Of a stretch of 64,000 bases of DNA, positions 3 through 63,026 are shown piece after piece. The notes below the pieces were generated by a model. It saw only the letters and a program-made list of their open reading frames with translations, was not told the origin of the DNA and ran no database searches. Within the stretch, counting starts at the first letter, position 1; each line of letters begins with the position of its first letter. The DNA comes from Bacillota bacterium (lineage in GTDB: Bacteria > Bacillota > Sulfobacillia > JAJZYS01 > JAJZLH01), in NCBI GenBank assembly GCA_021850485.1, contig JAJZLY010000005.1, forward strand, positions 12,686 to 76,685, written 5' to 3'. A program made the position numbers and the translations under genes.

Positions 3-1139
3 CGCCACCTCGGCCCCAACTGGCCGGCCGCCTTTGTCGCGATCAGCGAGCCGGATTCGCCGCTGGCTGAGCAGGCCTCCCGCCAGGGCTGGCGAGCCAG
101 CCTGGCCAAGTCGCCCCAGCTGGGGAGGCGGTTTGCAGCCCTGGCCCCAGAAGGCTTGCTGCCGCTGGTCTTGCTCGGCCACGATCCGCGTCCTTTGGTG
201 GATCAGGCCGGCCAGATGTGGGATGAACTCGCACTCGGCCAAGACGCCGGTGCGGCCGAACTGGCCGCCCTGCTGACCGCGGCGGCCCGCAGCGGCCGGA
301 ACAAGGTCTCACTTTATGCGGACGGCGCCTTTCGCCGCTGGCCGGCCTGGCTGGAGATCCAGATCGCGGCCGCCTTGGGCCGCCAAGATCAAGGACTGGT
401 GCCGGTGGCCGGTGAGGGCATACGCCAAGGCTACGGGCCGGACCGGCTGTTCATCTCATTTAGCCGCAGCGAGTTGGTCCCGCTCGGCCAGCTGGCAGAG
501 GCGGGCCATCCGACGGCCCGCTTTCAGATCTCGGAGGCGACAGAATTGGGCCGTGAGATGGTGCGGTTTCAGGTTGCCCTGGCTGCGGTTTCGGCACTGG
601 TCGAAGCACCCCTGATCGGAGAGTATGCCGAAGGAGAGCTGGAGGCCGAAACGACCCGGCTGCTGGTGGGGCCAGAGGCTGCACCAACCGAGGCGGGCAG
701 GGGCGGCGGGGGACCAGAGCAGGCGATGCGGGAGATCGAGAAGATGGTTCACGCCCTAGGCGAAGGCGGCCACGTCCGGGTCAGCACCTACCTGGATCCC
801 GAGAGCGAGGCGGCTGTGGTTGAGTTTTGCGGCTGGCTCGGCGGGCTGACCATGGCGCCGGTCACGTACGGCACAGGGGTATGCGGCGTAGCGTCCGAGG
901 GCCAGTTCCATCCGCCCAACTGGCGTAGCGGTGTGTTCGTCCAACTGGTGGACACATCCGGCCAAGTCCCGATCCCTGGCCGCCCCTACGGCTTTTCGGA
1001 GCTGACCAGGGCCCAGGCGGCAGCCGAGCGCATGGCGCTGCAGCGGCGGGGCCGACCGGTCGTGACCGTTGAGCTGAATGAGGCCACGGCCGCCAGCGTG
1101 CGGCGTCTGGTCGAGCTGGTGCCGGCTTCCAGGAGGTAG
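3..1139 (+). CDS. Conserved hypothetical protein, 5' end outside window; immediately upstream of zwf, possibly G6PD-associated (OpcA-like?)
   Basis: Frame 3 is open from window start to TAA at 1137-1139. GC-rich codon usage matches neighbouring genes. No recognisable motif. Position directly upstream of zwf is the only functional hint. Confidence 0.4.
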   Translation, partial: RHLGPNWPAAFVAISEPDSPLAEQASRQGWRASLAKSPQLGRRFAALAPEGLLPLVLLGHDPRPLVDQAGQMWDELALGQDAGAAELAALLTAAARSGRNKVSLYADGAFRRWPAWLEIQIAAALGRQDQGLVPVAGEGIRQGYGPDRLFISFSRSELVPLGQLAEAGHPTARFQISEATELGREMVRFQVALAAVSALVEAPLIGEYAEGELEAETTRLLVGPEAAPTEAGRGGGGPEQAMREIEKMVHALGEGGHVRVSTYLDPESEAAVVEFCGWLGGLTMAPVTYGTGVCGVASEGQFHPPNWRSGVFVQLVDTSGQVPIPGRPYGFSELTRAQAAAERMALQRRGRPVVTVELNEATAASVRRLVELVPASRR

Positions 1140-1215
1140 CGAACATGATTGGATCGGCGAGCGACCCAGCACATCACCTTGGGCCGCATCGCGCCCACCG
1201 ACTGGGGATAGTGCG

Positions 1216-2607
1216 ATGACTCCGCTCACCATGATCGTGTTCGGCGCCACCGGCGACCTGGCCCGGCGCAAGCTCTATTCGGCCATCGCCCACAACATCC
1301 GCTCCGGCCTGTTGCCCAAGGACACCGCCGTGATCGGCATCTCCCGCCAGCAGATGGACGATGCGGCATTTGGTCAACTGGTGGCAGACAGTATCGGCGG
1401 TCCGTGGCCCGCCAGCTCTCGGCTGGCCTATGTGGCCGGTAGCGCCGATCAGCCAGACCTCTACCCGGACTTGTCGCAACGGCTGAAGGCAGCTCCTGGT
1501 CTGCATCTGTTTTATCTGGCCGTGCCCACGCACCTGATCTCGGCCGTGGTCGGCCGCCTGGCTGATGCCAAACTCGGTCGCAGCCGAGGCCGGGTGATCA
1601 TCGAGAAGCCGTTTGGCGTCGACGAGGCCTCAGCCCGCACCCTGAACCGGTCCGTGCACCGGGCCTTTGCCGAGGGGCAGATCTATCGCATCGATCACTA
1701 TCTGGGCAAGGAGACGGTGCAGAACATTCTGGTGTTTCGCTTCTCCAACGGCGTGATGGAACCGCTGTGGAACCGCGGCCAGATCGACCATGTGCAGATC
1801 ACGGCGGCGGAGACAATCGGCACCGAGGGCCGCTCCGACTACTACGATCATGCCGGTGCCCTGCGCGACATGGTGCAAAACCACCTGCTGCAGCTGGTGG
1901 CCCTAACCGCCATGGAGCCGCCGGCGGTGTTTTCGGCACAGGCGGTGCGCGACGAAAAGGTGAAGGTGCTGTCCGCCATCCGGCCGGTGCGCACCGAAGA
2001 CGCGGTGCGCGGGCAGTATCAACAGGGCCGCATCGACGGAGTGTCGGTGCAGGGCTACCAGCAAGAGGACGGGGTCGCCCCGGACTCCAGGCGAGAGACC
2101 TTTGCCGCCCTGCGCCTTTTTATCGACAATTGGCGGTGGTACGGGGTGCCGTTTTACCTGCGCACCGGCAAGCGCCTGCCCCAGCGCGCGACCCGCATCC
2201 AGGTGGTGTTCAAGCAGCCGCCCTTGGACCTGTTCGAAGGAGCAGCTCAGGCCAACGTGCTCTCCATCCATGTGCAGCCAGACGAGCGGATCAGCCTGGA
2301 GATCGGCGCCAAGCGGCCGGGGCTGGGCACCCACGTCGATCCGGTGGAGATGAACTTTGTCTATGCCACAAGTTTTCGCTCGGCATCTGCCGAAGCCTAC
2401 GAGCGGCTATTGGTGGACGCCACCTTGGGCGACCCCACCTTGTTCGCCCGTGAGGATGAGGTGGAAGCCGCCTGGCGGGCACTGGATCCCCTGGCCCAAC
2501 GCTGGGACAAGGAGGCCGCTTGTTTGCCGTACGCTGCCGGTTCTTGGGGACCGCAGGCGGCCACCGCCTTGATCGCTCGCGACGGCCGGCACTGGCTTGA
2601 CCCCTAG
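1216..2607 (+). CDS. zwf: Glucose-6-phosphate 1-dehydrogenase (copy 1)
   Basis: ATG at 1216 gives MTPLTMIVFGATGDLARRKL (NADP-binding GxxGDLA). Downstream IDHYLGKETVQNILVFRFSNGVMEPLWNR is the G6PD signature. About 463 aa. The track ORF 1078.. carries an N-terminal run-in. Confidence 0.9.
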   Translation: MTPLTMIVFGATGDLARRKLYSAIAHNIRSGLLPKDTAVIGISRQQMDDAAFGQLVADSIGGPWPASSRLAYVAGSADQPDLYPDLSQRLKAAPGLHLFYLAVPTHLISAVVGRLADAKLGRSRGRVIIEKPFGVDEASARTLNRSVHRAFAEGQIYRIDHYLGKETVQNILVFRFSNGVMEPLWNRGQIDHVQITAAETIGTEGRSDYYDHAGALRDMVQNHLLQLVALTAMEPPAVFSAQAVRDEKVKVLSAIRPVRTEDAVRGQYQQGRIDGVSVQGYQQEDGVAPDSRRETFAALRLFIDNWRWYGVPFYLRTGKRLPQRATRIQVVFKQPPLDLFEGAAQANVLSIHVQPDERISLEIGAKRPGLGTHVDPVEMNFVYATSFRSASAEAYERLLVDATLGDPTLFAREDEVEAAWRALDPLAQRWDKEAACLPYAAGSWGPQAATALIARDGRHWLDP

Positions 2608-24390: not shown

Positions 24391-24445
24391 ACCGACGGCA
24401 CGGATCGTCCGTGCAGTTGGTAAACGCCACCCCCGCTGGTGGGGG

Positions 24446-36153: not shown

Positions 36154-36242
36154 CGGCCGCCGCAGGCGGCGAGGGAAGGAAGCAACTGGCAGTCAGAAGA
36201 AGCATGCGCTAACTTCTGCTGGCAAAGAGGGTGAAGGTCGCT

Positions 36243-37430
36243 ATGTTCCGTCGGGGCCGGAGCGTACGACTTTCAGCGTTGCTTTTTAGCTTGCTGGCGG
36301 CAGTCAGTGCCTGCGGCAATGTTGCAGTTGGCCCCCTCCCAGTGGTGGCAGGGGACTATCCGGTCCACCCGCTGCTCTCCACTCTGTGCCCGCCGCCTTC
36401 CGTTCACACCGTGACCGGCTTTGCTGGCGGCGGCCAGATTCTCGGCTACCAGCCGGGCTGGGGGATCTTGGTGGGTGCGAACCACCACGGCGGGCCTGGG
36501 GCGCACAGTCAGTACCAGCCGGGCCTGTACCTGGTCAATGCGGCCAGCGGGGCGGTTACTCGCCTGACCGCACTGGCGCTGGCGAACGGACAAAGTGTGC
36601 AAGCCGTGATCGGCGATGGTTGGGTGGTCTGGCTGAGGGCTGCCCCGGCCGGAGTAGGCCCATGGTCGCTGCAGGCACTCAATCTGGCCACCCACCGGCA
36701 GCAGACGGTGGACCGTGGGATGGCCGAAACCCGGCCCTTTGCCGCTCAGTTTGGTCCTCAGCGTCTGACCATCATCGGCGACACGCTGTATTTTCTGCTG
36801 GTGACGCCAGAGCGATCGGCGGTGCTGGCCTACGATTTCGCAACCGGCAGCCTGCGCACCGTGCTGGCGCTACCCGCCAAAGGCGGGCGCCAGATCCTGA
36901 CCATGGCCGCGACCGCATCAGGTCTTACCTATGTGGTCGGCTCGGCCGCATCTGCTGGCGGCGTGGCTGCGGGCGAGGTCTACTCACTGCCATTTGCATC
37001 CGGCCAATCCATCCCCCTGTTGAAACAGAAAAACGCGGCCTATGCGCTGGCCGTTGATGGGTCGACCCTGGCTCTCGCTCTATACAACCCGTCGATTCCG
37101 TTCCAGCGAGTGCTGCCCTATAGCTCGATCGTACTGTTTCGGCCGGGTGCCACCGCCCTGACCGATGTGGCAATCATGCCTGGGATTCGGGGCACCCCTC
37201 AATTTTGGTCGCACTATCTGGTGTGGGGGGCGGAGCCGGACCGGGGCGGGGTGTTGGACCTTGCCACCAACCAGGTCTACGTCTTGCCCAACTTGGGGTT
37301 GTTCTTCAGCCTGGGCGTCTACAACGGCATCCTCGGTTGGACCGGCGCCCTCTTCAAGCCAGCACCCACCGGCTCCAGCGCAGCCGTTACGGTGGTGCAG
37401 GACATCTCTTGGTGCTCCCTGGCCGGCTAG
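36243..37430 (+). CDS. Lipoprotein, hypothetical (beta-propeller-like)
   Basis: Signal peptide with lipobox LAAVSAC. No recognisable catalytic motif. Confidence 0.55.
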   Translation: MFRRGRSVRLSALLFSLLAAVSACGNVAVGPLPVVAGDYPVHPLLSTLCPPPSVHTVTGFAGGGQILGYQPGWGILVGANHHGGPGAHSQYQPGLYLVNAASGAVTRLTALALANGQSVQAVIGDGWVVWLRAAPAGVGPWSLQALNLATHRQQTVDRGMAETRPFAAQFGPQRLTIIGDTLYFLLVTPERSAVLAYDFATGSLRTVLALPAKGGRQILTMAATASGLTYVVGSAASAGGVAAGEVYSLPFASGQSIPLLKQKNAAYALAVDGSTLALALYNPSIPFQRVLPYSSIVLFRPGATALTDVAIMPGIRGTPQFWSHYLVWGAEPDRGGVLDLATNQVYVLPNLGLFFSLGVYNGILGWTGALFKPAPTGSSAAVTVVQDISWCSLAG

Positions 37431-37515: not shown

Positions 37516-39240
37516 ATGGGGGAGCACCCGGTGGCCACGGTGCGCGAGATCCTGTTGAACGTCGGCTCCGACGAGGTGCGCGCTGTCGTCTTGGAAGACG
37601 GTCAGCTGGCAGAGGTTTTGCTCGAGCGGCCGCAGCAGATGCGGTCGGTCGGCAACATCTACTTGGGCCGGGTGGAAGATGTATTGCCAGGGATGGACGC
37701 AGCCTTCGTCAACATCGGATTGGACCGCAACGCCTTTTTGTACGCCGACGACGCCGTGCATTGCTGCCAGTCCCAAGAGCGCACGGGTGAGGGCCGACCG
37801 CGCATTGAGGAGATGGTGCGGCCCGGTCAGCAGATCTTGGTCCAGGTGGACAAGGAACCAGTCGGTTCCAAGGGGGCCAAGATTTCGACCGCCATCGGCC
37901 TGCCCGGCCGCTTCGTGGTGCTGACGCCGCAGACTGACTTTTTGGGGGTCTCCAGGCGGATCGAAGACGAAGACGAGCGTGCCCGCCTGCGCGCCCTCGT
38001 CGAGGAAAGCCGCCGTCCTGGCCATGGAGTGATCGTCCGCACCGTGGCCGAGGGCCAAGGGGCGGCAGCCATCCGTGCCGACCTCAGATTTCTGGAGGCG
38101 CTGTGGGAGTCGATCCAAGAGCAGGCCGGGCGGGCCCAGCCGCCGGCGCTGTTGCACCGGGACATGGGCCTATCCGGCCGGCTGCTGCGCGACTTTATGA
38201 CCGACGACGTGCAGGTTCTTTTGGTCGACAATGCCGACGAATACCAAAACCTGATCGAACTGGCTGGCCTGATGTCGCCGGATCTCGCTCAGCGCATAGA
38301 GCTTACCGGTGGCGATCTGTTTGGGAAGCGGGGCCTGGACCAAGAGATGGAGCGGGCGATGCGGCGGCGGGTGTGGCTGCACTCCGGCGGCTACCTGGTG
38401 ATCGACCGGGCGGAGGCGCTGACCGCCGTGGACGTCAACACCGGCAAGTTTGTGGGCAAGGAGAACTTGGCCCAGACCATCTTGCAGACCAACCTGGAGG
38501 CGGCAGACGAAATTGCCCGTCAGTTGCGGTTGCGGGACCTCGGCGGGATCATCGTGGTCGACTTCATCGACATGGAGGAGGAGGCGCACCGCCAGCAGGT
38601 GCTGGACGCTCTGGAGCAGGCGGTGAAGCGTGACCGCACCAAGGTGCACGTGCTGGGCATGACCAAGCTGAACCTGGTCGAGATGACCAGGAAACGGGTC
38701 GGCTCCGGGCTGGATCAGACGCTGTACTCTCCCTGTCCGTTGTGCGACGGCTGGGGCAGGGTCGAGTCGGACGAGACGGTGGCCGTGCGCTTGCGCCGTG
38801 AGTTGCGCCAACTGCTGGCCGAGACGGCCGAAGAAGCGGTCTTGGTGGAGGCGCACCCGGCGGTGGCGGCGCTATTGATTGGCCCCGGTGGCGTGGCCCT
38901 GAAGACGCTGGAGCAAGAGACGGTGCATACCGTGTTCGTGCGCGGCAGCCTCGACCTGGCTCGGGCCGAGCACCGGGTGGTGGCCAAAGGTGCCCGTGCG
39001 GTGGTGGAAGCCTTGGCCCGGCCAGTGGTGGTCGGCCAGGAGGTTGAGGTCGAGATCTCAGCCGCCCATACCACCCAGGCGGCGGATGGGATCGCCCGCA
39101 TCCAAGGCTACGTGGTGGACGTCGAGCAGGGCGCTGGCCTGGTTGGCCAACGGGTCAAGGTGAAGATCGTCTCCACCCACCGCACTTATGCCCGGGCCAA
39201 ACTGGTCTTGTCGGCAGAGGCATCGCCCCGCCCGCTGTGA
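37516..39240 (+). CDS. rng: Rne/Rng family ribonuclease (RNase E/G) with C-terminal TRAM-like domain
   Basis: S1 domain (GNIYLGRVEDVLPGMDAAFVNIGLDRNAFL). DNase-I-like catalytic region. Zn-link CPLCDGWG. C-terminal EVEVEI...VKVKIVSTH is a TRAM-like barrel. Start uncertain (ATG 37516 or GTG 37531). Confidence 0.8.
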   Translation: MGEHPVATVREILLNVGSDEVRAVVLEDGQLAEVLLERPQQMRSVGNIYLGRVEDVLPGMDAAFVNIGLDRNAFLYADDAVHCCQSQERTGEGRPRIEEMVRPGQQILVQVDKEPVGSKGAKISTAIGLPGRFVVLTPQTDFLGVSRRIEDEDERARLRALVEESRRPGHGVIVRTVAEGQGAAAIRADLRFLEALWESIQEQAGRAQPPALLHRDMGLSGRLLRDFMTDDVQVLLVDNADEYQNLIELAGLMSPDLAQRIELTGGDLFGKRGLDQEMERAMRRRVWLHSGGYLVIDRAEALTAVDVNTGKFVGKENLAQTILQTNLEAADEIARQLRLRDLGGIIVVDFIDMEEEAHRQQVLDALEQAVKRDRTKVHVLGMTKLNLVEMTRKRVGSGLDQTLYSPCPLCDGWGRVESDETVAVRLRRELRQLLAETAEEAVLVEAHPAVAALLIGPGGVALKTLEQETVHTVFVRGSLDLARAEHRVVAKGARAVVEALARPVVVGQEVEVEISAAHTTQAADGIARIQGYVVDVEQGAGLVGQRVKVKIVSTHRTYARAKLVLSAEASPRPL

Positions 39241-39243
39241 CGA

Positions 39244-39711
39244 TCAGCCTTGCAAGGCGGCTAGAACTTGTGCCATCGGCGGCTGGTCGGTCGCATCCTT
39301 CAGCCACTGGTAGATGAGCCGACTGTCTGGCCCGAAGACGAACACGGCTCGATTCGAAACATTCAAGATGCCCGCCACCTCGGGCAGCAGCACGCCGAAG
39401 GCCGCTGCCGCCTGACGGTTCGGGTCTGCGAGCAAAGGGTAGGCCAGCGCGTTTTGGGTGGCGAAGGCCTGTTGCACGAACTGGCTATCGATGCTGATGG
39501 CGTACACTTCGGCACTTTGGGCTTGGATCTGATCCAGCACCTGCTGAACCGCACTCAACTCGCGCAGTCAGCCGCCGGTGAAGGCCAGGTGGTAGAAGAC
39601 GACAACCAGACGGTGCGCCGCCGCTCGCTCGGCCAAGTTCACCGTGGGCCCGGCTCCAGACACCAGCTGGACCTCGGGGCAGGGAGCGCCAACTGTAAGT
39701 CCTGTGGACAT
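39244..39711 (-). CDS. Bcp/PrxQ-type peroxiredoxin with in-frame TGA (candidate selenocysteine) at the peroxidatic Cys position
   Basis: Track ORFs 39568..39750 and 39244..39558 are one frame separated only by TGA (39568-39570). VVVFYHLAFTGG-U-LRELSAV...AISID aligns with E. coli Bcp [21 protein letters not shown]...GISTD, placing U on the catalytic Cys. RBS ggagggg precedes ATG 39711. Confidence 0.65.
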
Positions 39712-39856
39712 CTGCACCCCTCCGATCGGAGCCCAAGAGACACCACTCATTGTACGTCTTGGCCGCCGTCTGTGGGCCGATGAGTCGCTTGGCTGCTGGC
39801 CGGCCGTTATGGTACAGTACCAAGGTCTATGTGCCAGGCGACGCTAGGAGGCCGAC

Positions 39857-40168
39857 ATGTACGCGGTGATCGAGACCGGCGGCAAGCAGTATCGGGTCAG
39901 CCCGGGGGACACCTTGGGCGTGGAGAAGCTGGAGCCGGCCGGGGCCCAAGTGGTGTTTGATCAAGTGCTGTTGGTGGTTGATGACCAGGGTCAGTCCCGG
40001 GTCGGCACGCCCTTGGTCAAGGGCGCTACCGTGTGCGCGGACGTGCTTGGCGATAAGCTGGGCAAGAAGATCCGCGGCCTCAAGTACAAGTCAAAGTCCA
40101 ACTACCGGGTGCACTTCGGACACCGTCAGCGCCACACCATGGTGCGCATCACCCAGATCGAGGGATGA
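39857..40168 (+). CDS. rplU: 50S ribosomal protein L21
   Basis: MYAVIETGGKQYRVSPGDTL. RBS aggagg. Confidence 0.95.
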   Translation: MYAVIETGGKQYRVSPGDTLGVEKLEPAGAQVVFDQVLLVVDDQGQSRVGTPLVKGATVCADVLGDKLGKKIRGLKYKSKSNYRVHFGHRQRHTMVRITQIEG

Positions 40169-44580: not shown

Positions 44581-44656
44581 GGGGCCGTAGCTCAGTTGGG
44601 AGAGCGCCTGAATGGCATTCAGGAGGTCAGGGGTTCAACTCCCCTCGGCTCCACCA
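44581..44656 (+). tRNA. tRNA-Ala (anticodon GGC)
   Basis: Cloverleaf with G3:U70 identity pair. Anticodon loop aUGGCAu. T-loop ggttcaact. CCA encoded. Confidence 0.9.
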
Positions 44657-44750: not shown

Positions 44751-45779
44751 CTATTTTGGACTCCCGGCTCCGGTGCGACCCGATGGCATCTCATGGGAAC
44801 CCATGACGTCGGCAAAGAGCGATGCGGCCGTCTTGTCGGCGACCTTCTTCTGACGGCCAGGCTGATCGTGCATGTAAACGCTCATGGTCGTCGTCACTTT
44901 GGCGTGCCCAAGGCGGTTCTGGACGGCAGTCGTGTCGCCTTCTGAATCTTGGATCAGGAATGTCCCAACCATATGGCGGAGGTCGTGCAGGCGGATGTGC
45001 CGCAGGCCAGCCAGCTCTAATTGCCGAGTGAAGAGGCGGTGCAGGGTGCGTGGGCTGAGCGGCGTACCAACTCGCGACGGGAACACCAGGCCGTGCTCCT
45101 GCCACAATGTTCCGGCCCGCTCCCGGTCTTGGTCAAGACGCTGGCGCTGGTCCTGGAGGATGCGTCGGTCGGCGTCTGTCATCTCGATAGGGCGCGCCCC
45201 ACGGGGCTCCTTGGTCACCCGCTCGACGACACCACGACCTGGCCGGTACGGGCGCTGGACCCGCACATTGAGATAGCCGTGCTCCCAATCAATGTCGATC
45301 CAGCGCAGGCCGATCAGTTCGCCACGGTGCATGCCCGTTGAAAGGCTCAGTGCAAAGAGTCGGTGCGCAGAGAGGGAGTTAAGAAACGTGCGAGCCTCTT
45401 CCCGGGTATGGATGATGTGTTCGCGTGGCGTGTATTTGGGTTTCGTAACGCGGTCCAGCGGGTTGCGGGCGATCAGGTCGCCGACGGACGGCTGCCCGGA
45501 ACGCAATGTTGAGGATGTTGTGGCAGTGGGTAGGGGCGGAGCCGTGCAAGGAACCGTAGAGCTTCTCGACCTGGTCCGGTCGGAGACTGGCCAGCCGTTC
45601 TCCCCCGAGGAGTGGAACGATCTGGTTTCGAATGAGTCGGCGATACTTGGCGGTTGTATGCGGAGCCAGCGGGATACGGTGAATTCGAGCGGTCGTCGCA
45701 ATCGGGGCGCATTACATAACTGGCCATCACCTACAATGATCTCAATGACCGAGGGGAGGGGCTCGCTGTGAAGACACAC
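44751..45779 (-). CDS. Tyrosine recombinase/phage integrase, C-terminal catalytic domain intact, N-terminal region apparently degenerate
   Basis: Catalytic residues in ...HDLRHMVGTFLIQ... and ...SVYMHD (R..HxxR..Y). The first ~100 codons of the ORF lack core-binding-domain features. The ORF overlaps the divergent HicB-like gene. Confidence 0.75.
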   Translation of the reverse strand: MCLHSEPLPSVIEIIVGDGQLCNAPRLRRPLEFTVSRWLRIQPPSIADSFETRSFHSSGENGWPVSDRTRSRSSTVPCTAPPLPTATTSSTLRSGQPSVGDLIARNPLDRVTKPKYTPREHIIHTREEARTFLNSLSAHRLFALSLSTGMHRGELIGLRWIDIDWEHGYLNVRVQRPYRPGRGVVERVTKEPRGARPIEMTDADRRILQDQRQRLDQDRERAGTLWQEHGLVFPSRVGTPLSPRTLHRLFTRQLELAGLRHIRLHDLRHMVGTFLIQDSEGDTTAVQNRLGHAKVTTTMSVYMHDQPGRQKKVADKTAASLFADVMGSHEMPSGRTGAGSPK

Positions 45780-46779: not shown

Positions 46780-47979
46780 ATGCCAAGCATCACGCCACGG
46801 CCCCGCAAGAACGACCGGCCAGACCGGCCGACCAGGCGGCTTGTCACCTGGGACCTGCCGCCGGGTCCTGGTGGCAAGCGTCGGTGCACAACCGAGACGG
46901 TGCGAGGCAACAAGCGAGACGCCGAGCAGAGATCGACCGGGCTGCCGGCAGATACGTTTCACCATCTAAGCAAACCGTTGCACAGTACATGGAGCAGTGG
47001 CTTGCAACGGTGAGTCAGCACATTCGACCAGCCACCTACTACAGCTACGAAATGCAGGTTCGGGTGCATATCCTTCCTCACTTGGGGGCAGGAGCCCCTT
47101 GTCAACCTGGCAGCCCAATCGCTCCAGGCATGGTTGGTTACGTTGTCTCAGCCGCAGGGGAACGGCACGACCCTCTCGCCCCGCTCCGTCGCATACGTTT
47201 GCTCGGTGCTTGGCATCGCACTCGGAGAGGCAGTCCGGCTGGAGCTCCTGCCTGCGAACCCTGTGAGCCGGATACGACCGCCCAAGCAGAACCCGAAGAA
47301 GGTGGAGTCCCTCACCTTCGAGCAGGAACAGGCAATTGACGAAGTCGGGCGGGACATGAGGCTGGGCGTCTTGTTCTCGGTCCTGCGGAAGACGGGGCTT
47401 CGCATCGGCGAGGCGATCGGTCTCCGGTGGGAGGATGTGGACCTTGAGAACGCCACCCTTTCGGTCCATCGCACCATGTCGGAGATCAACGGACGAATGA
47501 TCGAAGGACCGCCCAAGACCAAGGCCGGACGACGGGAGATAGCGCTAGCCCCACAGACGGTCGAGATGCTCCGCTGCCAGAGGTAAGCGCAGGAAGTGGA
47601 GCGATGGGTAAACAGCGCGGACTGGAACCAACAGAGACTGGTATTCCCCTCTACTACGGGCACGGTGCTATTCCGCCACAATGTCCGACGTGCCTGGCTG
47701 GACCTCATTGCGAGAGATGGACTGCCGGTCTACGGTCTCCATGCCTTGCGCCACACCTGTGCCAGCCTCACGCTCCAAGCCGGAATCGGACTGGCCGAGA
47801 TCGCAGCCAAGTTAGGCGACGAGAACACCGCCTTCGGGGCCAGAGCCTACGCCCATGTCCTGCAAGCCACCAAACGGCAGGCAGAGGACCGCTTTGGGCG
47901 CTTCCTCACCGGAAGACCATCGGACTGGATTGTTGTCGAAATATTGGCAAACCGCCCGCCGACCCCTGCTATCACATGA
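46780..47979 (+). pseudogene. Phage-type integrase pseudogene (two frameshifts plus an in-frame TAA)
   Basis: The N-terminal segment (..GKRRCTTETVRGNKRDAEQ) is in frame 1. The core-binding segment (..SPSKQTVAQYMEQWLATV...HILPHLG) is in frame 0, then back in frame 1 (LVNLAAQSLQAWL...). A TAA at 47584-47586 precedes the catalytic domain (LHALRHTCAS...YAHV). Confidence 0.75.
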
Positions 47980-50713: not shown

Positions 50714-50899
50714 AAGAACTGAAACGGACTTGCATCGAAGACCCCCTCGCCATCGCGTCGATCATAGACGAGGCTGCGTGCCACGGCTACCAGCCGGGGA
50801 GAGTCCTGTCGGCGGCGGCTGGTTGGCGTATCATAGATACATAGAGCCCCAGGGATGGGGTCCAATTGGATGCCGCCAGGTGGCCGACGGGAGGTCCCG

Positions 50900-51814
50900 A
50901 TGCCAGCAGTCCCCTCTGGAGCGCAGTTTGAGATCCGCCACGGCAAACAGCGAGCGACCGTCGTCGAAGTCGGGGCGGCGATTCGTGAATACGTGGACAA
51001 TGAGCGCCCCGTCTTGGATCCTTTTCCTAGCGATGCGATGTGCGACGGCGCCCATGGCACGCCGCTGATCCCCTGGGCCAATCGGCTGGCTGACGGACGT
51101 TATCGGTTCGACGGCCACGAGTACCAGGTGCCGCTGACCGAGCCGGAAAAGCAAAATGCGATCCACGGCCTGGCGCGCTGGCGCAACTGGCAGCCGATCC
51201 GCCAGGGACCATGCACAGTGGTGATGGGAACCCGCCTACACCCCAGCCCCGGCTACCCTTTCACTCTGGATTTGGAGATCGACTATACGCTGAGCGCGGC
51301 GGGCCTGACGGTGGAGATTTCGGCCACCAACATGGGGACCGGTCCCTGCCCCTACGCCTGTGGCCAGCATCCGTACATGTCGCCGGGAGCTGGGCTGATC
51401 GATCAGTGCACGCTGCAGCTTGCAGCTGAAACCCGAATTCTCAGCGATCCTGTGCGCCAGCTGCCGACGGGGCTGGAAGCTGTGGCCGGCACGGCCTTCG
51501 ACTTCCGAACGCCCAGACCCATTGGCGAACAGCAGGTGGATTTCGCCTTCACCGACCTGAGCCGAGACCAAGACAACTTGGCTTGGGCCAGGCTAGGCTG
51601 CCCAGACGGGCGGAGCGTGGCACTGTGGGTGGATGCAACGTTTTCGGTGCTCGAACTCTACACCGGAGACACCCTCGCCCCCCACCGCAGGCGGCGGGGC
51701 TTAGGCACCGAGCCCATGACCGGCCCGCCGAACGGATTGCAAAGTGGTGTGGGCCTGATCCGGCTGGAAAGCGGTCAGCGCCATACCAGCCGGTGGGGCG
51801 TACGACTTGACTGA
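50900..51814 (+). CDS. Aldose 1-epimerase family protein
   Basis: Mutarotase-like conserved His/Glu context (…IHGLARW…, …FTLDLEIDYTL…). RBS gggagg before ATG 50900. Confidence 0.75.
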   Translation: MPAVPSGAQFEIRHGKQRATVVEVGAAIREYVDNERPVLDPFPSDAMCDGAHGTPLIPWANRLADGRYRFDGHEYQVPLTEPEKQNAIHGLARWRNWQPIRQGPCTVVMGTRLHPSPGYPFTLDLEIDYTLSAAGLTVEISATNMGTGPCPYACGQHPYMSPGAGLIDQCTLQLAAETRILSDPVRQLPTGLEAVAGTAFDFRTPRPIGEQQVDFAFTDLSRDQDNLAWARLGCPDGRSVALWVDATFSVLELYTGDTLAPHRRRRGLGTEPMTGPPNGLQSGVGLIRLESGQRHTSRWGVRLD

Positions 51815-51837
51815 ATGCCGTTGAGGGGGCGTTTGCG

Positions 51838-54645
51838 GTGACATCCAAGTCGGAGTTAGGCCCGGTCCGCCAGGCCAGTGCTCTTGGTCAGAGCATCTGG
51901 TACGACAATGTGAGGCGAGCGCTGCTCACCTCCGGGGAAATGGCCCGGATGGTGGCCGAAGACGGCTTGGGCGGGGTTACATCCAACCCGTCTATCTTCG
52001 AGAAGGCGATCAGCGGCTCCCAAGACTATGCGAAGGCCCTGGTGGCAGCCCGGGCCCGAGGCGCGCTGGATGCCAAGTCGCTTTATGAAGCCTTGGCCTT
52101 CGCTGACATCGCTGAGACTGCCGACATCTTGCGTCCGGTCTATGACCGCACCCGTGGCCAAGATGGATATGTCAGCATTGAGGTGCCGCCCAACTTGGCC
52201 CACGACTCGGCCGGCACTCTGGCTGAGGCGATCCGCATCTGGGGGGCGATCAACCGCCCGAACCTGATGATCAAAGTACCGGGCACCGCGGAGGGTCTGC
52301 CGGTGGTGCAGAGCCTGATCGGCAGGGGCATCAACGTCAACATCACGTTGCTGTTTTCGGTTGCCGTGTACGCCCAGGTGGCCCAAGCCTACCTGGCGGG
52401 ACTGGAGGATCGGCTGGCCGGTGGCGGCAAGATCGATCAGATCGGTTCGGTGGCCAGCTTCTTTGTCAGCCGCATCGACTCGGCGGTTGACGGCAGGCTG
52501 CCCCAGAAGCTGCAGGGCAAGGTCGCCATCGCCAACGCCAAGATCGCCTATCAGCGCTACCATCAGATCTTCTTTGGACCGCGCTGGCAGACGCTAAAGA
52601 AGCAGGGGGCAAGGCCTCAGCGCCTGCTGTGGGCATCCACCTCGACCAAGAACCCTGCCTATCCGGAGCTTCTCTACGTGGAGTCTTTAATCGGCCAGGA
52701 CACGGTGAACACCGTGCCTCCGGCCACCTACGACGCCTTCAAGGCCGAGGGCAAGGTGCGCGCCACGCTCGGCGAGGGACTGGAGGCGGCCGAGCAGGTT
52801 CTGGCCGGCGCCGCCAAAGCTGGCGTGGACCTGCAAGAGGTCACCGATCAACTGCTGGTCGAGGGACTGGACTCCTTCGATCTGGCGTTTCGCAGACTGC
52901 TAGGTGCCGTCGAGGCAACAACCGTCGCCAGTCCCCGTGCCACCGAAGGCAGGCGGTTTTTACCTCCTGAGCTCAACACCAGCGTGGATCAGATCATCGA
53001 TCAGTGGCGGGAGGAGGGCCGCGTCAGCCGACTTTGGGTCCACGATCAGACGCTGTGGACCGGCCAAGACGAGGCGCACTGGCTGGGCTGGTTGGGGGTG
53101 GCGCTTGACCAACGGACGCACCATCACCACTTGTCGCGCTGGATCGACGATGTGAAGGAAGCTGGGTTCCAAGACGCCGTGGTGCTGGGCATGGGCGGAT
53201 CCAGCCTGTGTCCGGACATGCTGGCCCATACCTTCCGCTACGGAAACCACCGCCCGCGCCTGCATGTCCTCGATTCCACCGATCCGACCCAGATCCGTGA
53301 CCTCGAGAGCACCCTGGACCTTGCCCACACCTTGTTCATCGTGTCCTCCAAGTCCGGCTCCACATTGGAGCCCAACATCTTCGCCGACTACTTCTGGGAT
53401 CGGATGCGGACGGTGGTTGGTGCTAATCAAACTGGCCAGCACTTCGTGGCCATCACGGATCCGGGCTCCGGACTCGAGCAGCGGGCCCACCACGACCAAT
53501 GGCGCGCCGTATTCCACGGCGTGCCTTCGATCGGTGGCCGCTACTCGGCTCTCTCCGACTTCGGCATGGTGCCAGCGGTGAGCATGGGCGTGGATGCGCT
53601 CCGCCTGCTGGAGCGGGCAGAGACCATGGCGCATGCATGTGCCGCCTGCGTGCCCGATCACGAAAACCCGGGGCTGGAGTTGGGGGCCATCTTGGGCGCC
53701 GCCGCAGCAGCCGGACGGGACAAGGTGACCCTAGTCACCGCTCCGGATATCGCCCACTTCGGAGGGTGGCTGGAGCAGCTTTTAGCCGAATCTACTGGAA
53801 AACAGGGCAAGGGGCTGATCCCCGTGGACCTGGAGCCCTTGGGCGAGGTGGAAGCCTACGGTCAAGACCGACTGTTTGTTCACATCTGCCTGGCCGACCA
53901 CCCCAATGCCGACCAAGACCGGCAGATCGACCGCCTGATCCAGGCCGGTCACGCTGTCTATCAGATCAATCTGCGCGATGCCTACGACCTGGGTGGCGAG
54001 ATCTTCCGGTGGGAGTTCGCGACCGCCGTGGCTGGCTCCATCATCGGCATCGACCCCTTCAACCAGCCCGATGTGGAAGACGCCAAGGTGGCCGCGCGCA
54101 AACTGGCCGAGGCCTACGAACAAACAGGTACGCTGCCACAGCTGACACCGGTGAAGACGGAGGGCACCTTCAAGCTCTTCACCGATGCGAGAAATGCCAA
54201 GGCCATCTCCGGTGCAGGATTGCCCAACTCGCTGGCCGGCGCCTTGAAGGCTCATCTGGCCCGGGCCAAGGCCGGCGACTATGTGGCGCTATTGGCCTAC
54301 ATCCCGATGACCGCAGAGCACCAAGCAGCCCTGACCAAGATCCGCACCGGGATCAGAGATCGCCAGCAGGTGGCGACCTGCGTCGGATTCGGGCCTCGCT
54401 TCCAGCACTCCACCGGCCAGGCCTATAAGGGCGGCCCGAACAGCGGGGTGTTTTTGCAGATCACCTGTGACGATGGCCAAGACCTGCCGGTACCGGGCCA
54501 CCGCTACAGCTTCGGCGTGATCAAAGAGGCGCAGGCCAGAAGCGACCTGGACGTGCTGGCCGCACGCGGACGGCGCGTCTTGCGGCTGCACCTGGGGTCG
54601 GATGTGGACTCCGGTTTGGCCGAGCTGGCCCGGATGCTGGCCTGA
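51838..54645 (+). CDS. Bifunctional transaldolase / glucose-6-phosphate isomerase
   Basis: 935 aa. N-terminal transaldolase (SIWYDNVRR... KVPGTAEGL). C-terminal PGI (…LFIVSSKSGSTLEP…, SIS domains). Confidence 0.9.
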   Translation: MTSKSELGPVRQASALGQSIWYDNVRRALLTSGEMARMVAEDGLGGVTSNPSIFEKAISGSQDYAKALVAARARGALDAKSLYEALAFADIAETADILRPVYDRTRGQDGYVSIEVPPNLAHDSAGTLAEAIRIWGAINRPNLMIKVPGTAEGLPVVQSLIGRGINVNITLLFSVAVYAQVAQAYLAGLEDRLAGGGKIDQIGSVASFFVSRIDSAVDGRLPQKLQGKVAIANAKIAYQRYHQIFFGPRWQTLKKQGARPQRLLWASTSTKNPAYPELLYVESLIGQDTVNTVPPATYDAFKAEGKVRATLGEGLEAAEQVLAGAAKAGVDLQEVTDQLLVEGLDSFDLAFRRLLGAVEATTVASPRATEGRRFLPPELNTSVDQIIDQWREEGRVSRLWVHDQTLWTGQDEAHWLGWLGVALDQRTHHHHLSRWIDDVKEAGFQDAVVLGMGGSSLCPDMLAHTFRYGNHRPRLHVLDSTDPTQIRDLESTLDLAHTLFIVSSKSGSTLEPNIFADYFWDRMRTVVGANQTGQHFVAITDPGSGLEQRAHHDQWRAVFHGVPSIGGRYSALSDFGMVPAVSMGVDALRLLERAETMAHACAACVPDHENPGLELGAILGAAAAAGRDKVTLVTAPDIAHFGGWLEQLLAESTGKQGKGLIPVDLEPLGEVEAYGQDRLFVHICLADHPNADQDRQIDRLIQAGHAVYQINLRDAYDLGGEIFRWEFATAVAGSIIGIDPFNQPDVEDAKVAARKLAEAYEQTGTLPQLTPVKTEGTFKLFTDARNAKAISGAGLPNSLAGALKAHLARAKAGDYVALLAYIPMTAEHQAALTKIRTGIRDRQQVATCVGFGPRFQHSTGQAYKGGPNSGVFLQITCDDGQDLPVPGHRYSFGVIKEAQARSDLDVLAARGRRVLRLHLGSDVDSGLAELARMLA

Positions 54646-54699
54646 TCGAGCGAAGGCGGCGAATTGGCGGAGGACATGGACACAGAGGAGGTATTGGTG

Positions 54700-55719: not shown

Positions 55720-55761
55720 CGGCCAAAGCGCCCACTTGGCCCCAGTCAGAGGAGGCAGTCC

Positions 55762-56436: not shown

Positions 56437-57365
56437 GTTTGGGACACGGTCCGCTGTATGTGCTGCCGTTTGACCACCGGGGATCGTTCCAAAAGGGCCT
56501 GTTCGGGGTGGACCAGGGCGAGCCGCTCAGCGCTGAACAGCGGCGGCGGATCGAAGATCTCAAACTCCTGGTCTATGAGGGCTTGGAGCAGGCGCTACGC
56601 CAGGGTGCTTCGGCAAAGGCCGCCGGCGTGTTGGTCGACGAGGAGTTTGGCGCCGAGGTGGCCAGGCGGGCGAAGAAGGCAGGCCTGACGCTGGCCATGC
56701 CGGCTGAGAAGTCTGGCCAAGACGAGTTCGACTTCGAGTACGGCGCCGAGTACCAGGCGCACATTGCGGCCTTTGCGCCGGACTACGTCAAGGTGCTGGT
56801 CCGCTACAACCCAGAGGGAGACCTGACCCTAAACGCCCGCCAAGAGGTCAAGTTGGCCGGCCTGTGCCAGTGGCTGGCGGGACAACCGGCAGGGTTCTTG
56901 TTCGAACTCTTGGTGCCGGCCACCCCAGCCCAAATGGCCCGGGTGGCTGGCGACAAGCAGGCGTACGCCGAGTCCCTCCTGCCGGATCTGGTGGTGCGGG
57001 CGATGGCCCAGTTGCAGGCAGCCGGCGTGGAGCCGGACGTGTGGAAGATCCAGGGGTTGGAGACACGCGAAGACTGCGAGCGGGCCGCAGCTCAGGCCCG
57101 TGCCGGGGGTCGAGAGCGGGTGTTTTGCATCATCCTCGGCCACGGCGCCGACGACGCTCAGGTCACCCGTTGGCTGCAAGCGGCGGCTGGCGTGGCTGGC
57201 TACGATGGGTTCGCTATCGGCCGCACCATCTGGTGGCAGCCGGTGGTGGATCACCAGGCAGGGCGCATCGATCGGGCCGAGGCCGTGCGACAGGTGGCTG
57301 ACAAGTACCAGCAGATGGTTGCGGTGTACGAGGCGGGCAAGCAGCAGCCTACTGGCGGCAGATGA
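56424..57365 (+). CDS. Class I aldolase-like TIM-barrel protein (LacD/DUF2090-like), function unknown
   Basis: LYVLPFDHRGSF resembles the LacD/DUF2090 AFDQRG motif. It sits within the PPP cluster between the HAD gene and zwf2. Confidence 0.4.
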   Translation: MAAVSLGHGPLYVLPFDHRGSFQKGLFGVDQGEPLSAEQRRRIEDLKLLVYEGLEQALRQGASAKAAGVLVDEEFGAEVARRAKKAGLTLAMPAEKSGQDEFDFEYGAEYQAHIAAFAPDYVKVLVRYNPEGDLTLNARQEVKLAGLCQWLAGQPAGFLFELLVPATPAQMARVAGDKQAYAESLLPDLVVRAMAQLQAAGVEPDVWKIQGLETREDCERAAAQARAGGRERVFCIILGHGADDAQVTRWLQAAAGVAGYDGFAIGRTIWWQPVVDHQAGRIDRAEAVRQVADKYQQMVAVYEAGKQQPTGGR

Positions 57366-58828
57366 CGGCCGCTGGCCCGGCCGCCTCGCCTAAGTTACCG
57401 GTTGCACTGACCCCAGATCCCACCGTGTTGGTCTTGTTCGGGGTGACCGGCGATTTGGCCCGGCGCAAACTGTTGCCCGGCCTCTACCACCTGGCGGCGG
57501 CCGGGCTGATGCCCAAGCGCTATCAAATTGTGGGCACAGCGCCGGCGGAATCTGGTATGGATCAAGAGTCCTTTGCGGCATACGTGCAAGACGTGCTCGC
57601 CCACTTCGGCCGACGCGAACTGAGCAATCGGGTGTGGCAGCCCTTCAGCCGACGCCTGCGATTTGTGCCGTCGCAGCCAGAAAAGATGCAAGACCTGGCT
57701 CAGGCCGTGACCGAGGCCAGTGCCGAGATCAAGGCGGCCAACCGGCTCATCTACTTGGCGGTGCCGCCTGATGCCTTCTCGCCGATGATCAAGGCGATCG
57801 GCAAGGCGAAGATCGCCACCGCCGCAAGCCGCCTGGTGATCGAAAAGCCCTTCGGCCACGACCTCGCCTCTGCCCGAGCCTTGAATCGGGCCCTGCACCG
57901 GGTGTTTTCGGAGGCGCAGATCTACCGCATCGACCACTTCTTGGGCAAAGAGGCCGTGCAGAATATCTTGGCCATCCGCTTCGCCAACGGGCTGTTCGAG
58001 GCGGCCTGGAACAGGGAGCACGTGGCGTACGTCCAGATCGACATCCCGGAGACGCTGACCATCGAGGGTCGCGCTGGCTTTTACGAGGCGACCGGCGCCT
58101 TTCGGGACATGGTCGTCACCCACCTCTTCCAGCTGCTGGGGTTTGTGGCCATGGAGCCGCCAGACCACTTCGATGCCCTGTCGCTGCAGTCCACAAAGCG
58201 GCGCGTATTTTTGGCCATGCGGCCGCTTGACCCGGCACGGGTGGTCTACGGCCAGTACCGGGGATACCGCAAGGAGCCAGGGGTGGCCAAAGATTCGACA
58301 GTAGAGACGCTGGTGGCGTTGGAGGCTTGGATCGACAATCCACGCTGGCGGGGCGTGCCCTTTTACCTGCGCACCGGCAAGGCCATGGCGAGAAGTGCCC
58401 TGACCGTCACGCTGGGCTTTCGGGATCCGCCCCGCCACATGTTCGACCGGGTGGCGCAGCAGAAGCTGGGAGAGAGCCCCAACGAGTTAGTGCTGGAGCT
58501 GGCCGACCCTGGGCAGGTGCACATTCCCTTTCTGGCCAAAGAGCCGGGGCCGACCATGACGCTGGCCGAAGCGGCGCTGAACTTCTCGTATGCCGACTCC
58601 TTTCAGGCGGCCAATGAGTTGGAGGCCTATGAACGGCTGTTGCATGACATCATGCTGGGCGATCAGACGCTATTCAACGGGGCTAGCGCCATTGAGCGGC
58701 TGTGGCAGGTAGCGGCGCCTGTGCAGGCAAACCCGCCCGCGCTCTTGCCCTATGCCCAGGGCTCTTGGGGGCCAAAGTCCGTGCAGCAGCTGGTTGAACC
58801 CCATCGCTGGCACCTGGGAGACGACTGA
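57362..58828 (+). CDS. zwf: Glucose-6-phosphate 1-dehydrogenase (copy 2)
   Basis: VLFGVTGDLARRKL. IDHFLGKEAVQNILAIRFANGLFEAAWNR. 488 aa. Confidence 0.9.
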   Translation: MTAAGPAASPKLPVALTPDPTVLVLFGVTGDLARRKLLPGLYHLAAAGLMPKRYQIVGTAPAESGMDQESFAAYVQDVLAHFGRRELSNRVWQPFSRRLRFVPSQPEKMQDLAQAVTEASAEIKAANRLIYLAVPPDAFSPMIKAIGKAKIATAASRLVIEKPFGHDLASARALNRALHRVFSEAQIYRIDHFLGKEAVQNILAIRFANGLFEAAWNREHVAYVQIDIPETLTIEGRAGFYEATGAFRDMVVTHLFQLLGFVAMEPPDHFDALSLQSTKRRVFLAMRPLDPARVVYGQYRGYRKEPGVAKDSTVETLVALEAWIDNPRWRGVPFYLRTGKAMARSALTVTLGFRDPPRHMFDRVAQQKLGESPNELVLELADPGQVHIPFLAKEPGPTMTLAEAALNFSYADSFQAANELEAYERLLHDIMLGDQTLFNGASAIERLWQVAAPVQANPPALLPYAQGSWGPKSVQQLVEPHRWHLGDD

Positions 58829-60303: not shown

Positions 60304-60422
60304 CTCTTATCAAGAGAGGCAGAGGGAAACGGCCCGATGAAGCCCGACAACCGACCCGATCACTTGTGATCGGGAAGCGGTGCCAATTCCGGCGCCCCGT
60401 CAGGGAGCGCGAGATGAGAGGA
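60304..60422 (+). ncRNA. SAM-I riboswitch (S-box) aptamer
   Basis: cucuuaucaagagaggcagagggaaacggcccgaugaagcccgacaacc...gguGCcaauucc...gcgagaugagag matches the S-box consensus (P1, kink-turn, GA motif). Confidence 0.85.
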
Positions 60423-60449
60423 GGGACAGCCCGCTTCTCACACAGCGCG

Positions 60450-60484
60450 TCACCTCTTCCATCGGGAAGAGGTTTTTGTTTGCC
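60450..60484 (+). terminator. Riboswitch expression-platform terminator
   Basis: cacctcttcc-atcg-ggaagaggt followed by ttttgttt. Confidence 0.65.
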
Positions 60485-60552
60485 CGGCAACGGTCGGCAA
60501 GCAAAGACCCACCGAAAAGAGGTCGGCTGCGGCTGAGAAGGAGGGGTCGTCT

Positions 60553-61839
60553 GTGTCCAAATTGGGAACCCTGTGTGTGCACGCCGGTCAGAACGTGGAT
60601 CCGGCCACCAAATCCCGGGCTGTACCCATCTACGCCACCACCGCCTATGTGTTTGACAGCCCGGACCACGCCCGGGATCTCTTCGCGCTGCAAACTCCGG
60701 GCAACATCTACTCCCGGATCATGAACCCCACCAACGATGTCTTCGAACAGCGCCTGGCCGCCCTGGAAGGTGGGGTGGCGGCGCTCGCTACCGCCTCGGG
60801 CCAAGCCGCCATCACCTTGGCCATCCTCAACCTGGCCCAGGCGGGAGACAACATCATCTCCTCGCCGAGCCTGTACGGCGGCACCTGGAATCTGTTCGCC
60901 CATACCTTTCGCAAGCTCGGCATCACCGTGACCATGGCCGACGCCAGCCGTCCCGAAGAGATCGCACGTGCCGTCGACGACCGGACCCGGGCCGTCTACA
61001 TCGAAGCCGTCGGCAACCCGCGCCTGGATGTGCCAGACTTCCAGGCCGTCTCCGAGGTTGCGCATCGGCATGGACTGCCGCTGATCGTGGACTCCACCTT
61101 CCTCACACCGGCCCTGTTTCGCCCGATCGAGCACGGCGCTGACATCGTGGTGCACTCCGCCACCAAGTTCATCGACGGGCACGGCACGGCGATCGGCGGC
61201 GCCATCGTCGACTCGGGCAAGTTCGACTGGCAGGGCAGCGGCCGCTTCGCCGACCTGACCGAGCCGGACCCCACCTACCACGGTGTGCGCTATGTGGAGA
61301 GTTTCGCCGCCGCCGCCTACATCGCCAAGGCCCGGGTTCAGCTGTTGCGCGACCTCGGACCCTGTCTCTCGCCGTTTCACGCCTTTTTGTTCCTGCAGGG
61401 GTTGGAGACCTTGCACCTGCGCATGGCCCGTCACTCGCAAAATGCGGCACAGACAGCCCAGTGGCTGAGCCACCATCCGGCGGTTTCCTGGGTGAATTAT
61501 CCGACCTTGGCCAGCCATCGGGACCATGCCCTGGCCGCACGGTACTTTCCGGATGGTGCCGGTGCGATCTTGACCTTTGGCGTGAAAGGGGGGTTCGAGC
61601 CGGCCAAGGCCTTCATCGAGCGCTTGCAGCTGTTCTCGCTTTTGGCCAACGTCGGCGACGCCAAGAGCTTGGTCATCCACCCCGCCTCGACCACCCACTC
61701 CCAGCTGACGGCCACCGAGCAGACGGAAGCCGGCGTCAGCCCAGACATGGTCCGGCTATCGGTCGGCATCGAGGACCCAGACGACATCTTGGCCGATCTC
61801 GACCAGGCCCTGGCCGCGGTCGCGATCAAGAGCGCGTGA
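60553..61839 (+). CDS. metY: O-acetylhomoserine sulfhydrylase (PLP-dependent)
   Basis: TLCVHAGQ...[10 protein letters not shown]...[10 protein letters not shown] is the Cys/Met-metabolism PLP family. RBS aaggagggg. GTG start. Confidence 0.9.
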
Positions 61840-63026
61840 GCACGGTCGCCCAGCACCAGGCGCAGCGCATCTCATTGCCGAGAAGGCCGTTTCCGCTGAC
61901 TGGCGGCGATAGCTTGCCCGAAGTGCAGGTGGCAGTGCGCACCTGGGGTCACTACGATGCAAACGCCAACCGCGGCGCTGGCAACGCCGTGCTCATCTGC
62001 CACGCCCTGACCGGAGACCAAGACCCAACGACCTGGTGGCCCGGTGTGGTCGGGGTCGGCCGAGCGATTGACCCAAAGCTCCACTTCATCATCGGCCAAA
62101 ACGTGCTGGGTGGCTGTCAGGGCACCACCGGGCCGCTTAGCATAGATCCGGCCAGCGGCCGCCCGTGGGGGCTGACATTTCCCAGCGTCCAGGTCGCGGA
62201 TATGGTGGCGGTGCAGGCGGATCTGCTAGAGCAGCTCGGTGTTTCGCACCTGTGGCTGGTGGCCGGTGGATCACTCGGCGGCATGCAGGCCCTGGCCTGG
62301 GCCATGCTCCACCCCGGCCGGCTGGAGCATGCGCTGGTGGCTTGTGCACCGTGGGCCAGTCCGCCCATGGCCATCGCCTGGAATGAGATCGGCCGCCAGG
62401 CCATCTTGCTGGACCCGGATTTTGCCAACGGATCCGACCCCTCGGGCCAGACGGCAGGACGCGGCCTGTCGGTGGCTCGCATGCTGGCCATGACCACCTA
62501 CCGCAGCCACCAGGATCTACATCAGCGCTTTGGCCGAGACATGCTGGACTCTGCCACCGACCCGGTGTTCGCCCGCAGTGGGCCCTATGCCACAGAGCTG
62601 CCGCGCACATTTCGCTTCGCGCCGCACTACCAGGTCGAAAGCTACCTGCACTATCAGGGGGAGAAATTGCGCCGACGCTTTGACGCCTTCTCCTATCTCT
62701 ACCTGACCGCGGCCATGGATGGCTTCGACGGCGCACAGCTGACGGTCGGCCAGTTGACTGGGCCGTTGCCCCGGGTGCACGTGCTTGGCGTGGACAGCGA
62801 TCTGCTCTACCCAGAGCCAAGTGTGCGTGAGGTATGCCTGCAGCTGGGTGCCCTGGGCTACCCGGCCAGCTACCAACAGCTGAAAAGTGCCAGTGGCCAT
62901 GACGCCTTCTTGCTGGAAGGTGCCTTGGTCGGGCGAGAGATCGACGCATTGCTTCAAGACCGCACCTTGCCGGCCGCCGCCAGCCTGGCGGCCGCAGCAC
63001 ACGGCCGATCTGCAGGCGGCAGGTGA
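61836..63026 (+). CDS. metX: Homoserine O-acetyltransferase
   Basis: GTG overlaps the metY stop. [23 protein letters not shown] (nucleophile elbow). Alpha/beta hydrolase. Confidence 0.9.

Follow-up and report, generated by a model that had tools for sequence, protein, structure and literature searches.

A predicted selenocysteine-containing peroxiredoxin encoded across an in-frame TGA between rng and rplU in a Bacillota genome

A 64,000 bp stretch of DNA from a Bacillota bacterium (GenBank assembly GCA_021850485.1, contig JAJZLY010000005.1, forward-strand positions 12,686 to 76,685; the whole stretch is termed the window) carries, between rng and rplU, a minus-strand peroxiredoxin gene with one in-frame TGA codon, which very probably specifies selenocysteine (Sec). 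Two minus-strand open reading frames (ORFs), 39568..39750 and 39244..39558, were proposed in a first-pass annotation to form a single frame. Translation of 39750..39244 bears this out, as the only internal stop is the TGA at 39570..39568. The codon is flanked by LVVVFYHLAFTGG and LRELSAVQQ or, in a longer form of the joined frame, by AAAHRLVVVFYHLAFTGG and LRELSAVQQVLDQ. The coding sequence is placed at 39244..39711 (minus strand) and comprises 155 codons and a terminal TGA at 39246..39244; M1 is the ATG at 39711..39709, and codon 48 is the internal TGA.

A Shine-Dalgarno-like GGAGGGG is present at 39717..39723 (minus strand), 5 nt before ATG 39711, and agrees with the ribosome-binding site pointed out in the first-pass annotation. 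The sequence TCCGATCGGAGG in this region is kept in two related loci, L001 and L097. Further upstream, TACAAT at 39749..39754 (minus strand) is a candidate -10 promoter box, proposed only from conservation: GCCAAGrCGTACAATG is common to the window, L001 and L097. A scan of 39000..40000 for sigma-70 consensus promoters and terminators returned no sites, and no full sigma-70 site. The start was set at 39711, and not at 39750, because the ATG at 39750 overlaps the conserved TACAAT box and because homologues begin at a methionine equivalent to ATG 39711. Translation probably does not begin at the in-frame ATG at 39750.

With codon 48 written as cysteine, the joined protein matches Pfam AhpC-TSA (PF00578) over residues 7-134 in one stretch across the TGA (E 1.2e-25; 90.3 bits against a gathering threshold of 26), and positions 1-123 of the 124 in the profile are covered. 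The nearest solved structure is the A. pernix BCP/PrxQ protein 2cx3 (1.9e-19, PDB alignment over residues 7-144) and the next PDB match is M. tuberculosis AhpE, 1xvw (3.8e-11). Every NCBIfam model stays below its cut-off for the joined protein, including the Bcp equivalog NF006960 (49.1 bits vs a 140-bit cut-off), PrxU NF040737 (34.5 vs 270 bits) and the Prx-SUH selenoprotein NF045827 (28.7 vs 298 bits). The Bcp/PrxQ-type identity first given to the protein is upheld by these matches, which identify it as a predicted peroxiredoxin of the BCP/PrxQ-AhpE-like branch.

The TGA aligns on the cysteine of FFPAAFSPVCTKEL in A. pernix BCP, within the 2cx3 stretch FFPAAFSPVC, a residue taken here to be the peroxidatic Cys49. 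The same column is cysteine in 79 Cys homologues. This column alignment places the TGA (39568..39570, minus strand) at the peroxidatic position, as the U of TxxU, which is where the first-pass annotation had put it. The PxxxTxxC plus Arg motif is otherwise represented by two conserved active-site residues encoded on the minus strand, Thr45 (codon ACC, 39577..39579), the Thr of TxxU, and Arg121 (codon CGA, 39349..39351), which hardly varies among the 62 sequences of alignment A5. His41 (codon CAC, 39589..39591, minus strand) replaces the universal proline, so that the motif reads HxxxTxxU. Histidine stands at -7 from Sec in 11 of the 11 Sec lineages of the main clade described below; a more distant lineage, L095, retains proline. 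Among the 70-odd Cys forms examined, the same position is nearly always proline and never histidine. At +5 the window protein has Ser53, and cysteine at +5 was found in no Sec form. The window protein has one cysteine elsewhere, Cys11 (in PCPE), whose conservation is limited to a sub-clade, and the clade as a whole has no second conserved cysteine.

Most matches of a first protein search were C-terminal fragments, and the closer matches of a profile search included 16 shortened ORFs of 87-114 residues. In public records the gene family is annotated as a "redoxin domain-containing protein" of 104-114 residues (MHB1506012.1, MHB1842654.1, MHB1980729.1, HEX6988429.1); these records keep the post-TGA fragment alone and lack the first 47 residues together with the catalytic one. 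As the records annotate a truncated protein, the catalytic half and Sec are absent from databases. That no NCBIfam model is reached is probably the reason why public annotation holds the C-terminal fragment only. When the 47-residue N-terminal peptide was searched against 5.8 billion proteins, two other Sec-form fragments were the only matches; none of these proteins was a Cys form with a comparable N-terminus.

Twelve lineages with DNA were compared (window/L004, L001, L097, L086, L096, L002/L003/L005, L093, L090, L091/L092, L089, L094 and L095), with loci drawn from independent assemblies: NCBI metagenome-assembled genomes, ENA, Logan and JGI. In all twelve, a short upstream ORF (~46-54 residues where called separately) is in frame with the downstream fragment, with one TGA between them in the identical column, and neither frameshifts nor further stops were found. 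Protein identity among the TGA-bearing lineages falls to roughly 30-40%, and the lineages occupy at least five gene neighbourhoods: rng/rplU (the window type), GT4-S6PP/FGGY kinase, MTHFR/hydrolase, TetR/CsoR-copper ATPase and PFK-PK. The motif preceding the TGA is [FW]YHLAFT[GAP]G, and GFPLAFTGG in L095. The base that follows UGA (A4 column 19) is C in seven lineages and G in five, and never A or U. Ratios of nonsynonymous to synonymous substitution (dN/dS, Nei-Gojobori) are below 1 on either side of the TGA in every computable comparison with the window, with values of 0.14 upstream and 0.23 downstream for L001, and 0.29 and 0.29 for L097. By this measure, purifying selection acts on the gene both before and after the TGA.

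The first-pass annotation had pointed to Cys orthologs in relatives as an argument against Sec; the main clade was found to have no Cys-bearing ortholog. A metagenome scan for additional Sec forms yielded one distant Cys relative only, and a genome scan yielded one Sec form (L005) and at least 560 Cys forms among the matches listed. In a crude neighbour-joining tree, built on the shared C-terminal 87 columns, the Sec forms with histidine are monophyletic. This His-type clade, the main clade, has 15 members: 11 with DNA, the fragments P0010 and P0023 without DNA, and two near-identical cluster representatives that were counted once in the tree. Its sister is a Cys clade of the CxxxxC PrxQ type with the sequence FFPAAFTSVCTxEMC. 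Another Sec group, which is of the Pro type (L095, P0052 and P0053), branches outside.

The L095 locus (6559-7470) displays a second AhpC/TSA gene (170 residues), convergent with and immediately 3′ of the Sec-peroxiredoxin gene. It is full-length according to the gene call, and the two genes may form a Sec/Cys peroxiredoxin pair.

Downstream of the UGA, the mRNA can form a SECIS-like hairpin (SECIS, selenocysteine insertion sequence) at 39531..39550 on the minus strand, consisting of GGUUCAGC (39550..39543), an AGGU loop (39542..39539) and GCUGGAUC (39538..39531). With the U of UGA as nt 1, nt 21-28 pair with nt 33-40 in an 8-bp stem; the stem begins 17 nt and the loop 25 nt past the UGA. The predicted energy is -10.7 kcal/mol in a 26-nt context and -9.2 kcal/mol as a bare stem-loop. 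Bacterial SECIS elements are heterogeneous, and the published rules, as quoted in a 2026 review (PMC13188914), ask for 3-9 nt in the loop, 4-16 bp in the stem, a UGA-loop distance of 16-37 nt, a minimum free energy of at most -7.5 kcal/mol, and a G at the first or second loop position, mostly with G or U after it. The window hairpin satisfies these rules with its 4-nt loop, 8 bp, G-G-U and 25 nt.

Comparison among lineages supports this element, which the first-pass annotation had singled out for its AGGU loop. In 12 aligned main-clade sequences, 91.7% of helix cells are paired, compared with at most 40% in registers slid by 1-3 nt. Two pairs vary on both sides, 37-54 (GC/GU/UA/AU) and 42-49 (GC/AU/GU), and the covariation score lies above that of 500 of 500 shuffles. 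The stem is retained in L089 (FQRALER) and L094 (FQRSLEQ) despite other amino acids, with the loop CGUGCU or GGUC. The best hairpin falls at 24-25 nt spacing in 11 of the 11 main-clade Sec lineages; that of L095 differs, with a GUUC loop 17 nt past the UGA. A rule-compliant hairpin at -7.5 kcal/mol or below is found in 10 of 12 Sec forms vs 9 of 79 Cys homologues. The latter served as a negative control matched in GC content (66%), and their compliant hairpins are at scattered positions.

The host lineage also points to Sec utilization. Mates of the window proteins in 90%-identity clusters are labelled Sulfobacillus sp. A published table of Sec-utilizing organisms gives 7 known selenoproteins for Sulfobacillus acidophilus and 8 for S. 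thermosulfidooxidans; in the related genera Symbiobacterium and Thermaerobacter the numbers are 10 and 4-5, respectively (PMC5029168, Table S2). Sec-containing formate dehydrogenases are reported from all Sulfobacillus genomes (PMC4378227). No mention of sel genes was found in the supplement of the Sulfobacillus genome paper, and no second selenoprotein was found in the 64-kb window.

Several observations weigh against Sec at this codon. Neither selA, selB and selD nor tRNA-Sec was detected in the 64-kb window (Pfam on ~50 ORFs, ARAGORN, Rfam), and sel genes were not detected in the related loci either, so that the Sec trait of the genome is inferred from taxonomy. The GC content of the window is 65%, which is presumably above that of cultured Sulfobacillus; the host may therefore be a more distant relative. 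The hairpin is largely written into a clade-specific peptide motif, [VI]QQVLD, and taken by itself the nucleotide-level evidence is moderate. Under synonymous recoding with the codon usage of the window, ~38% of recodings regain the 6-bp core in lineages that have a 6-bp stem only, and the hairpin signal is thus partly confounded with protein conservation; the full 8 bp of the window are regained in 3.2%. Few independent events underlie the compensatory changes, and Rfam at E up to 10 gave no match to a SECIS family. Folds of single sequences over the 61 nt past the UGA are no better than those of shuffles (z = -1.3, -0.2, -0.1), and the minimum-energy fold of these 61 nt in the window favours a competing structure. 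The AGGU hairpin proposed in the first-pass annotation is the one that is conserved and agrees with the SECIS rules. As the single-sequence z-scores are not significant, weight is put on comparative pairing and the controls. Taken together, the hairpin is best described as one that behaves as a SECIS element, with a signal partly confounded by codon and amino-acid constraint.

When this evidence is combined, the first-pass reading is supported in each element that could be checked, and the locus is considered to encode a Sec-containing peroxiredoxin, with Sec at position 48 decoded from UGA, at a probability of roughly 90%. Of the alternatives, recoding of another kind survives best, although it is given only a slim chance. 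Here, read-through of UGA would insert a standard amino acid such as cysteine, tryptophan or glycine, or the UGA would be purely a regulatory attenuator. UGA-C is a leaky stop context, and C or G follows the UGA in 12 of 12 lineages; also, the Sec machinery has not been seen directly. These points have to be set against the position of the codon, as UGA substitutes the redox-active catalytic cysteine, the signature position of Sec, and against the hairpin, which carries a SECIS-type G-[G/U] loop at the canonical distance, in a lineage documented as Sec-utilizing. A general reassignment of UGA does not apply. Among 47 validated genes of the window, 33 end in TGA (the Sec-peroxiredoxin gene included), nine in TAG and five in TAA; TGA is a normal stop in this genome, and genetic codes 4 and 25 are ruled out since 33 of 47 genes terminate with it. 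When the 64-kb window was scanned for TGA codons flanked on either side by coding signal, this was the only one found, besides gene junctions and antisense frames.

A still less probable alternative is that two products are made: the N-terminal 47 residues as one peptide, and a C-terminal fragment of ~100 residues with its own initiation. The two would associate, or the latter alone would be functional. Gene callers do place starts past the TGA in every lineage. However, these internal starts vary in position and codon (TTG, ATG, GTG), no conserved ribosome-binding site was seen at them, neither piece would hold the peroxidatic residue, and the frame is continuous over the TGA in all lineages. 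The fresh pseudogene that the first-pass annotation had kept as its alternative, in which a chance TGC/TGT to TGA mutation struck the catalytic codon, requires one base change only and would fit the truncated 104-residue protein of public annotation, but it has next to no probability given the identical TGA in 12 lineages down to ~30-40% protein identity with reading frames otherwise intact, dN/dS well below 1 on either side and a main clade devoid of Cys-bearing orthologs. Sequencing error and a split gene are excluded, together with the pseudogene, by the 12-lineage TGA pattern, the different neighbourhoods, the independent assemblies and dN/dS. That the homologous loci are assembly copies of a single sequence is likewise ruled out by how far they have diverged.

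If UGA48 is decoded as Sec, as is preferred here, the established bacterial pathway suggests that SelB, in complex with GTP and Sec-tRNA(Sec), would bind the AGGU-loop hairpin and deliver Sec at this codon. Without selenium or SelB, a 47-residue fragment would be released. By analogy with peroxiredoxin chemistry, the Sec48 selenolate, activated by Thr45 and Arg121, would attack the peroxide and be converted to a selenenic acid, which could be recycled by an external thiol, either thioredoxin or a low-molecular-weight thiol system. The enzyme should work as a 1-Sec peroxiredoxin; this cycle is proposed because Ser53 is at +5, where the sister CxxxxC clade has cysteine, and because there is no second cysteine clade-wide. 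It is conceivable, although rather doubtful, that the exchange of proline for histidine alongside that of cysteine for Sec produced a distinct catalytic variant of peroxiredoxin in which the histidine is a selenium-specific adaptation. Candidate roles for His41 would be to relay protons to the selenolate or the selenenic acid, or to guard against over-oxidation.

Sec-peroxiredoxins are an already known class. The family has been described as "Peroxiredoxin (Prx), PF00578, TxxU", with a conserved PxxxTxxU (PMC13188914). Twelve Sec-peroxiredoxins and five Cys-to-Sec events, one of them in Symbiobacterium, were reported by Zhang et al. (2006), and 91 Sec-Prx proteins in 78 organisms by Peng et al. 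(2016). The proteins described here share with this family the AhpC/TSA fold, Sec in place of the peroxidatic cysteine in TxxU and a SECIS hairpin predicted within the coding sequence, but the main clade has HxxxTxxU instead of PxxxTxxU, is BCP/PrxQ-AhpE-like, and lies outside every NCBIfam selenoprotein model. The biochemically described PrxU of Eubacterium acidaminophilum (NF040737) likewise has Sec at the peroxidatic position and a Gram-positive host. The comparison with PrxU that the first-pass annotation had called for sets the two apart, however, as the PrxU model has 233 positions vs 155 residues in the window protein, which stays far below the model's 270 bits. PrxU is presumably of the AhpC/Prx1-type subfamily. 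A "PrxU" reported to be up-regulated in S. thermotolerans is a 178-residue protein that cannot be equated with this family.

Among Cys peroxiredoxins, BCP/PrxQ proteins (A. pernix 2cx3/4gqc; E. coli Bcp, NF006960) provide the best structure match, and the nearest Cys clade has the CxxxxC typical of PrxQ; the window protein differs in that it lacks the resolving cysteine at +5 and has Sec for Cys and His for Pro. M. tuberculosis AhpE (1xvw/1xxu), a 1-Cys peroxiredoxin, resembles it in size and in a mechanism with one catalytic residue and no conserved resolving cysteine, and presumably also in the motif F-x-LAFTG-x-C. AhpE is, however, a distant match (~4e-11) from another phylum that uses cysteine and keeps the proline. 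On the basis of these comparisons, the gene adds a new clade to the Sec-peroxiredoxins and is not a PrxU.

With this clade, the bacterial selenoproteome gains at least 15 cluster representatives, most of them from uncultured Bacillota of high GC content that are related to Sulfobacillus. It also represents use of Sec in antioxidant defence in an apparently aerobic genome, which looks aerobic because 2-oxoglutarate dehydrogenase is encoded. HxxxTxxU is a natural variant with which the roles of the conserved proline, and of Sec vs cysteine, in catalysis might be probed. The current understanding of Sec decoding is unchanged, and the main value lies in the correction of annotation.

The window as a whole is a housekeeping region with a Bacillota-like gene order: tig, clpP, clpX, 2-oxoglutarate dehydrogenase E1/E2, lon, valS, folC, radC, mreBCD, pbp2, rodA, rng, the peroxiredoxin gene, rplU, prp, rpmA, obg and nadD. 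In the spacer between the peroxiredoxin gene and rplU, a near-palindrome, GGTACTGTACC, is found within GTACTGTACCAyAACGG at 39805-39821, 36-52 nt 5′ of the rplU start. The motif is kept in L097, L086 and L096 amid diverging spacer sequence and matches no Rfam family; it may represent an rplU promoter, leader or operator. Between rodA and rng there is an ORF of ~400 residues (36213-37430) without a Pfam match. Its counterpart in L086 (8081-9286, 401 residues) is also without a Pfam match, and the position is conserved.

A tRNA-Ala(GGC) gene at 44581..44656 is directly followed by a tyrosine-recombinase (phage integrase) gene at 44751..45779 (minus strand) and an integrase fragment at 47014..47586. 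The GC content of the 44-48 kb segment is 0.61 vs ~0.65, and the segment is likely to be a mobile element that has inserted at the tRNA gene. A pentose-phosphate cluster at 50837-58828 displays a 944-residue fusion of transaldolase and phosphoglucose isomerase (51811..54645), a 6-phosphogluconate dehydrogenase and a glucose-6-phosphate dehydrogenase (57302..58828); a second paralogue of the latter is at 1078..2607. In the region 60304-63026, an S-adenosylmethionine (SAM) riboswitch (RF00162, 74.6 bits) lies directly 5′ of a pyridoxal phosphate (PLP) enzyme gene of Cys/Met metabolism (60418..61839) and an alpha/beta-hydrolase ORF (61143..63026). The latter may encode a homoserine acetyltransferase, and a homoserine dehydrogenase is encoded just upstream. 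At 22669-25426, a sortase gene comes after the gene for a 573-residue protein that has an Ice-binding-like domain (PF11999, 2e-54); this arrangement suggests that the 573-residue protein is a surface protein anchored by sortase.

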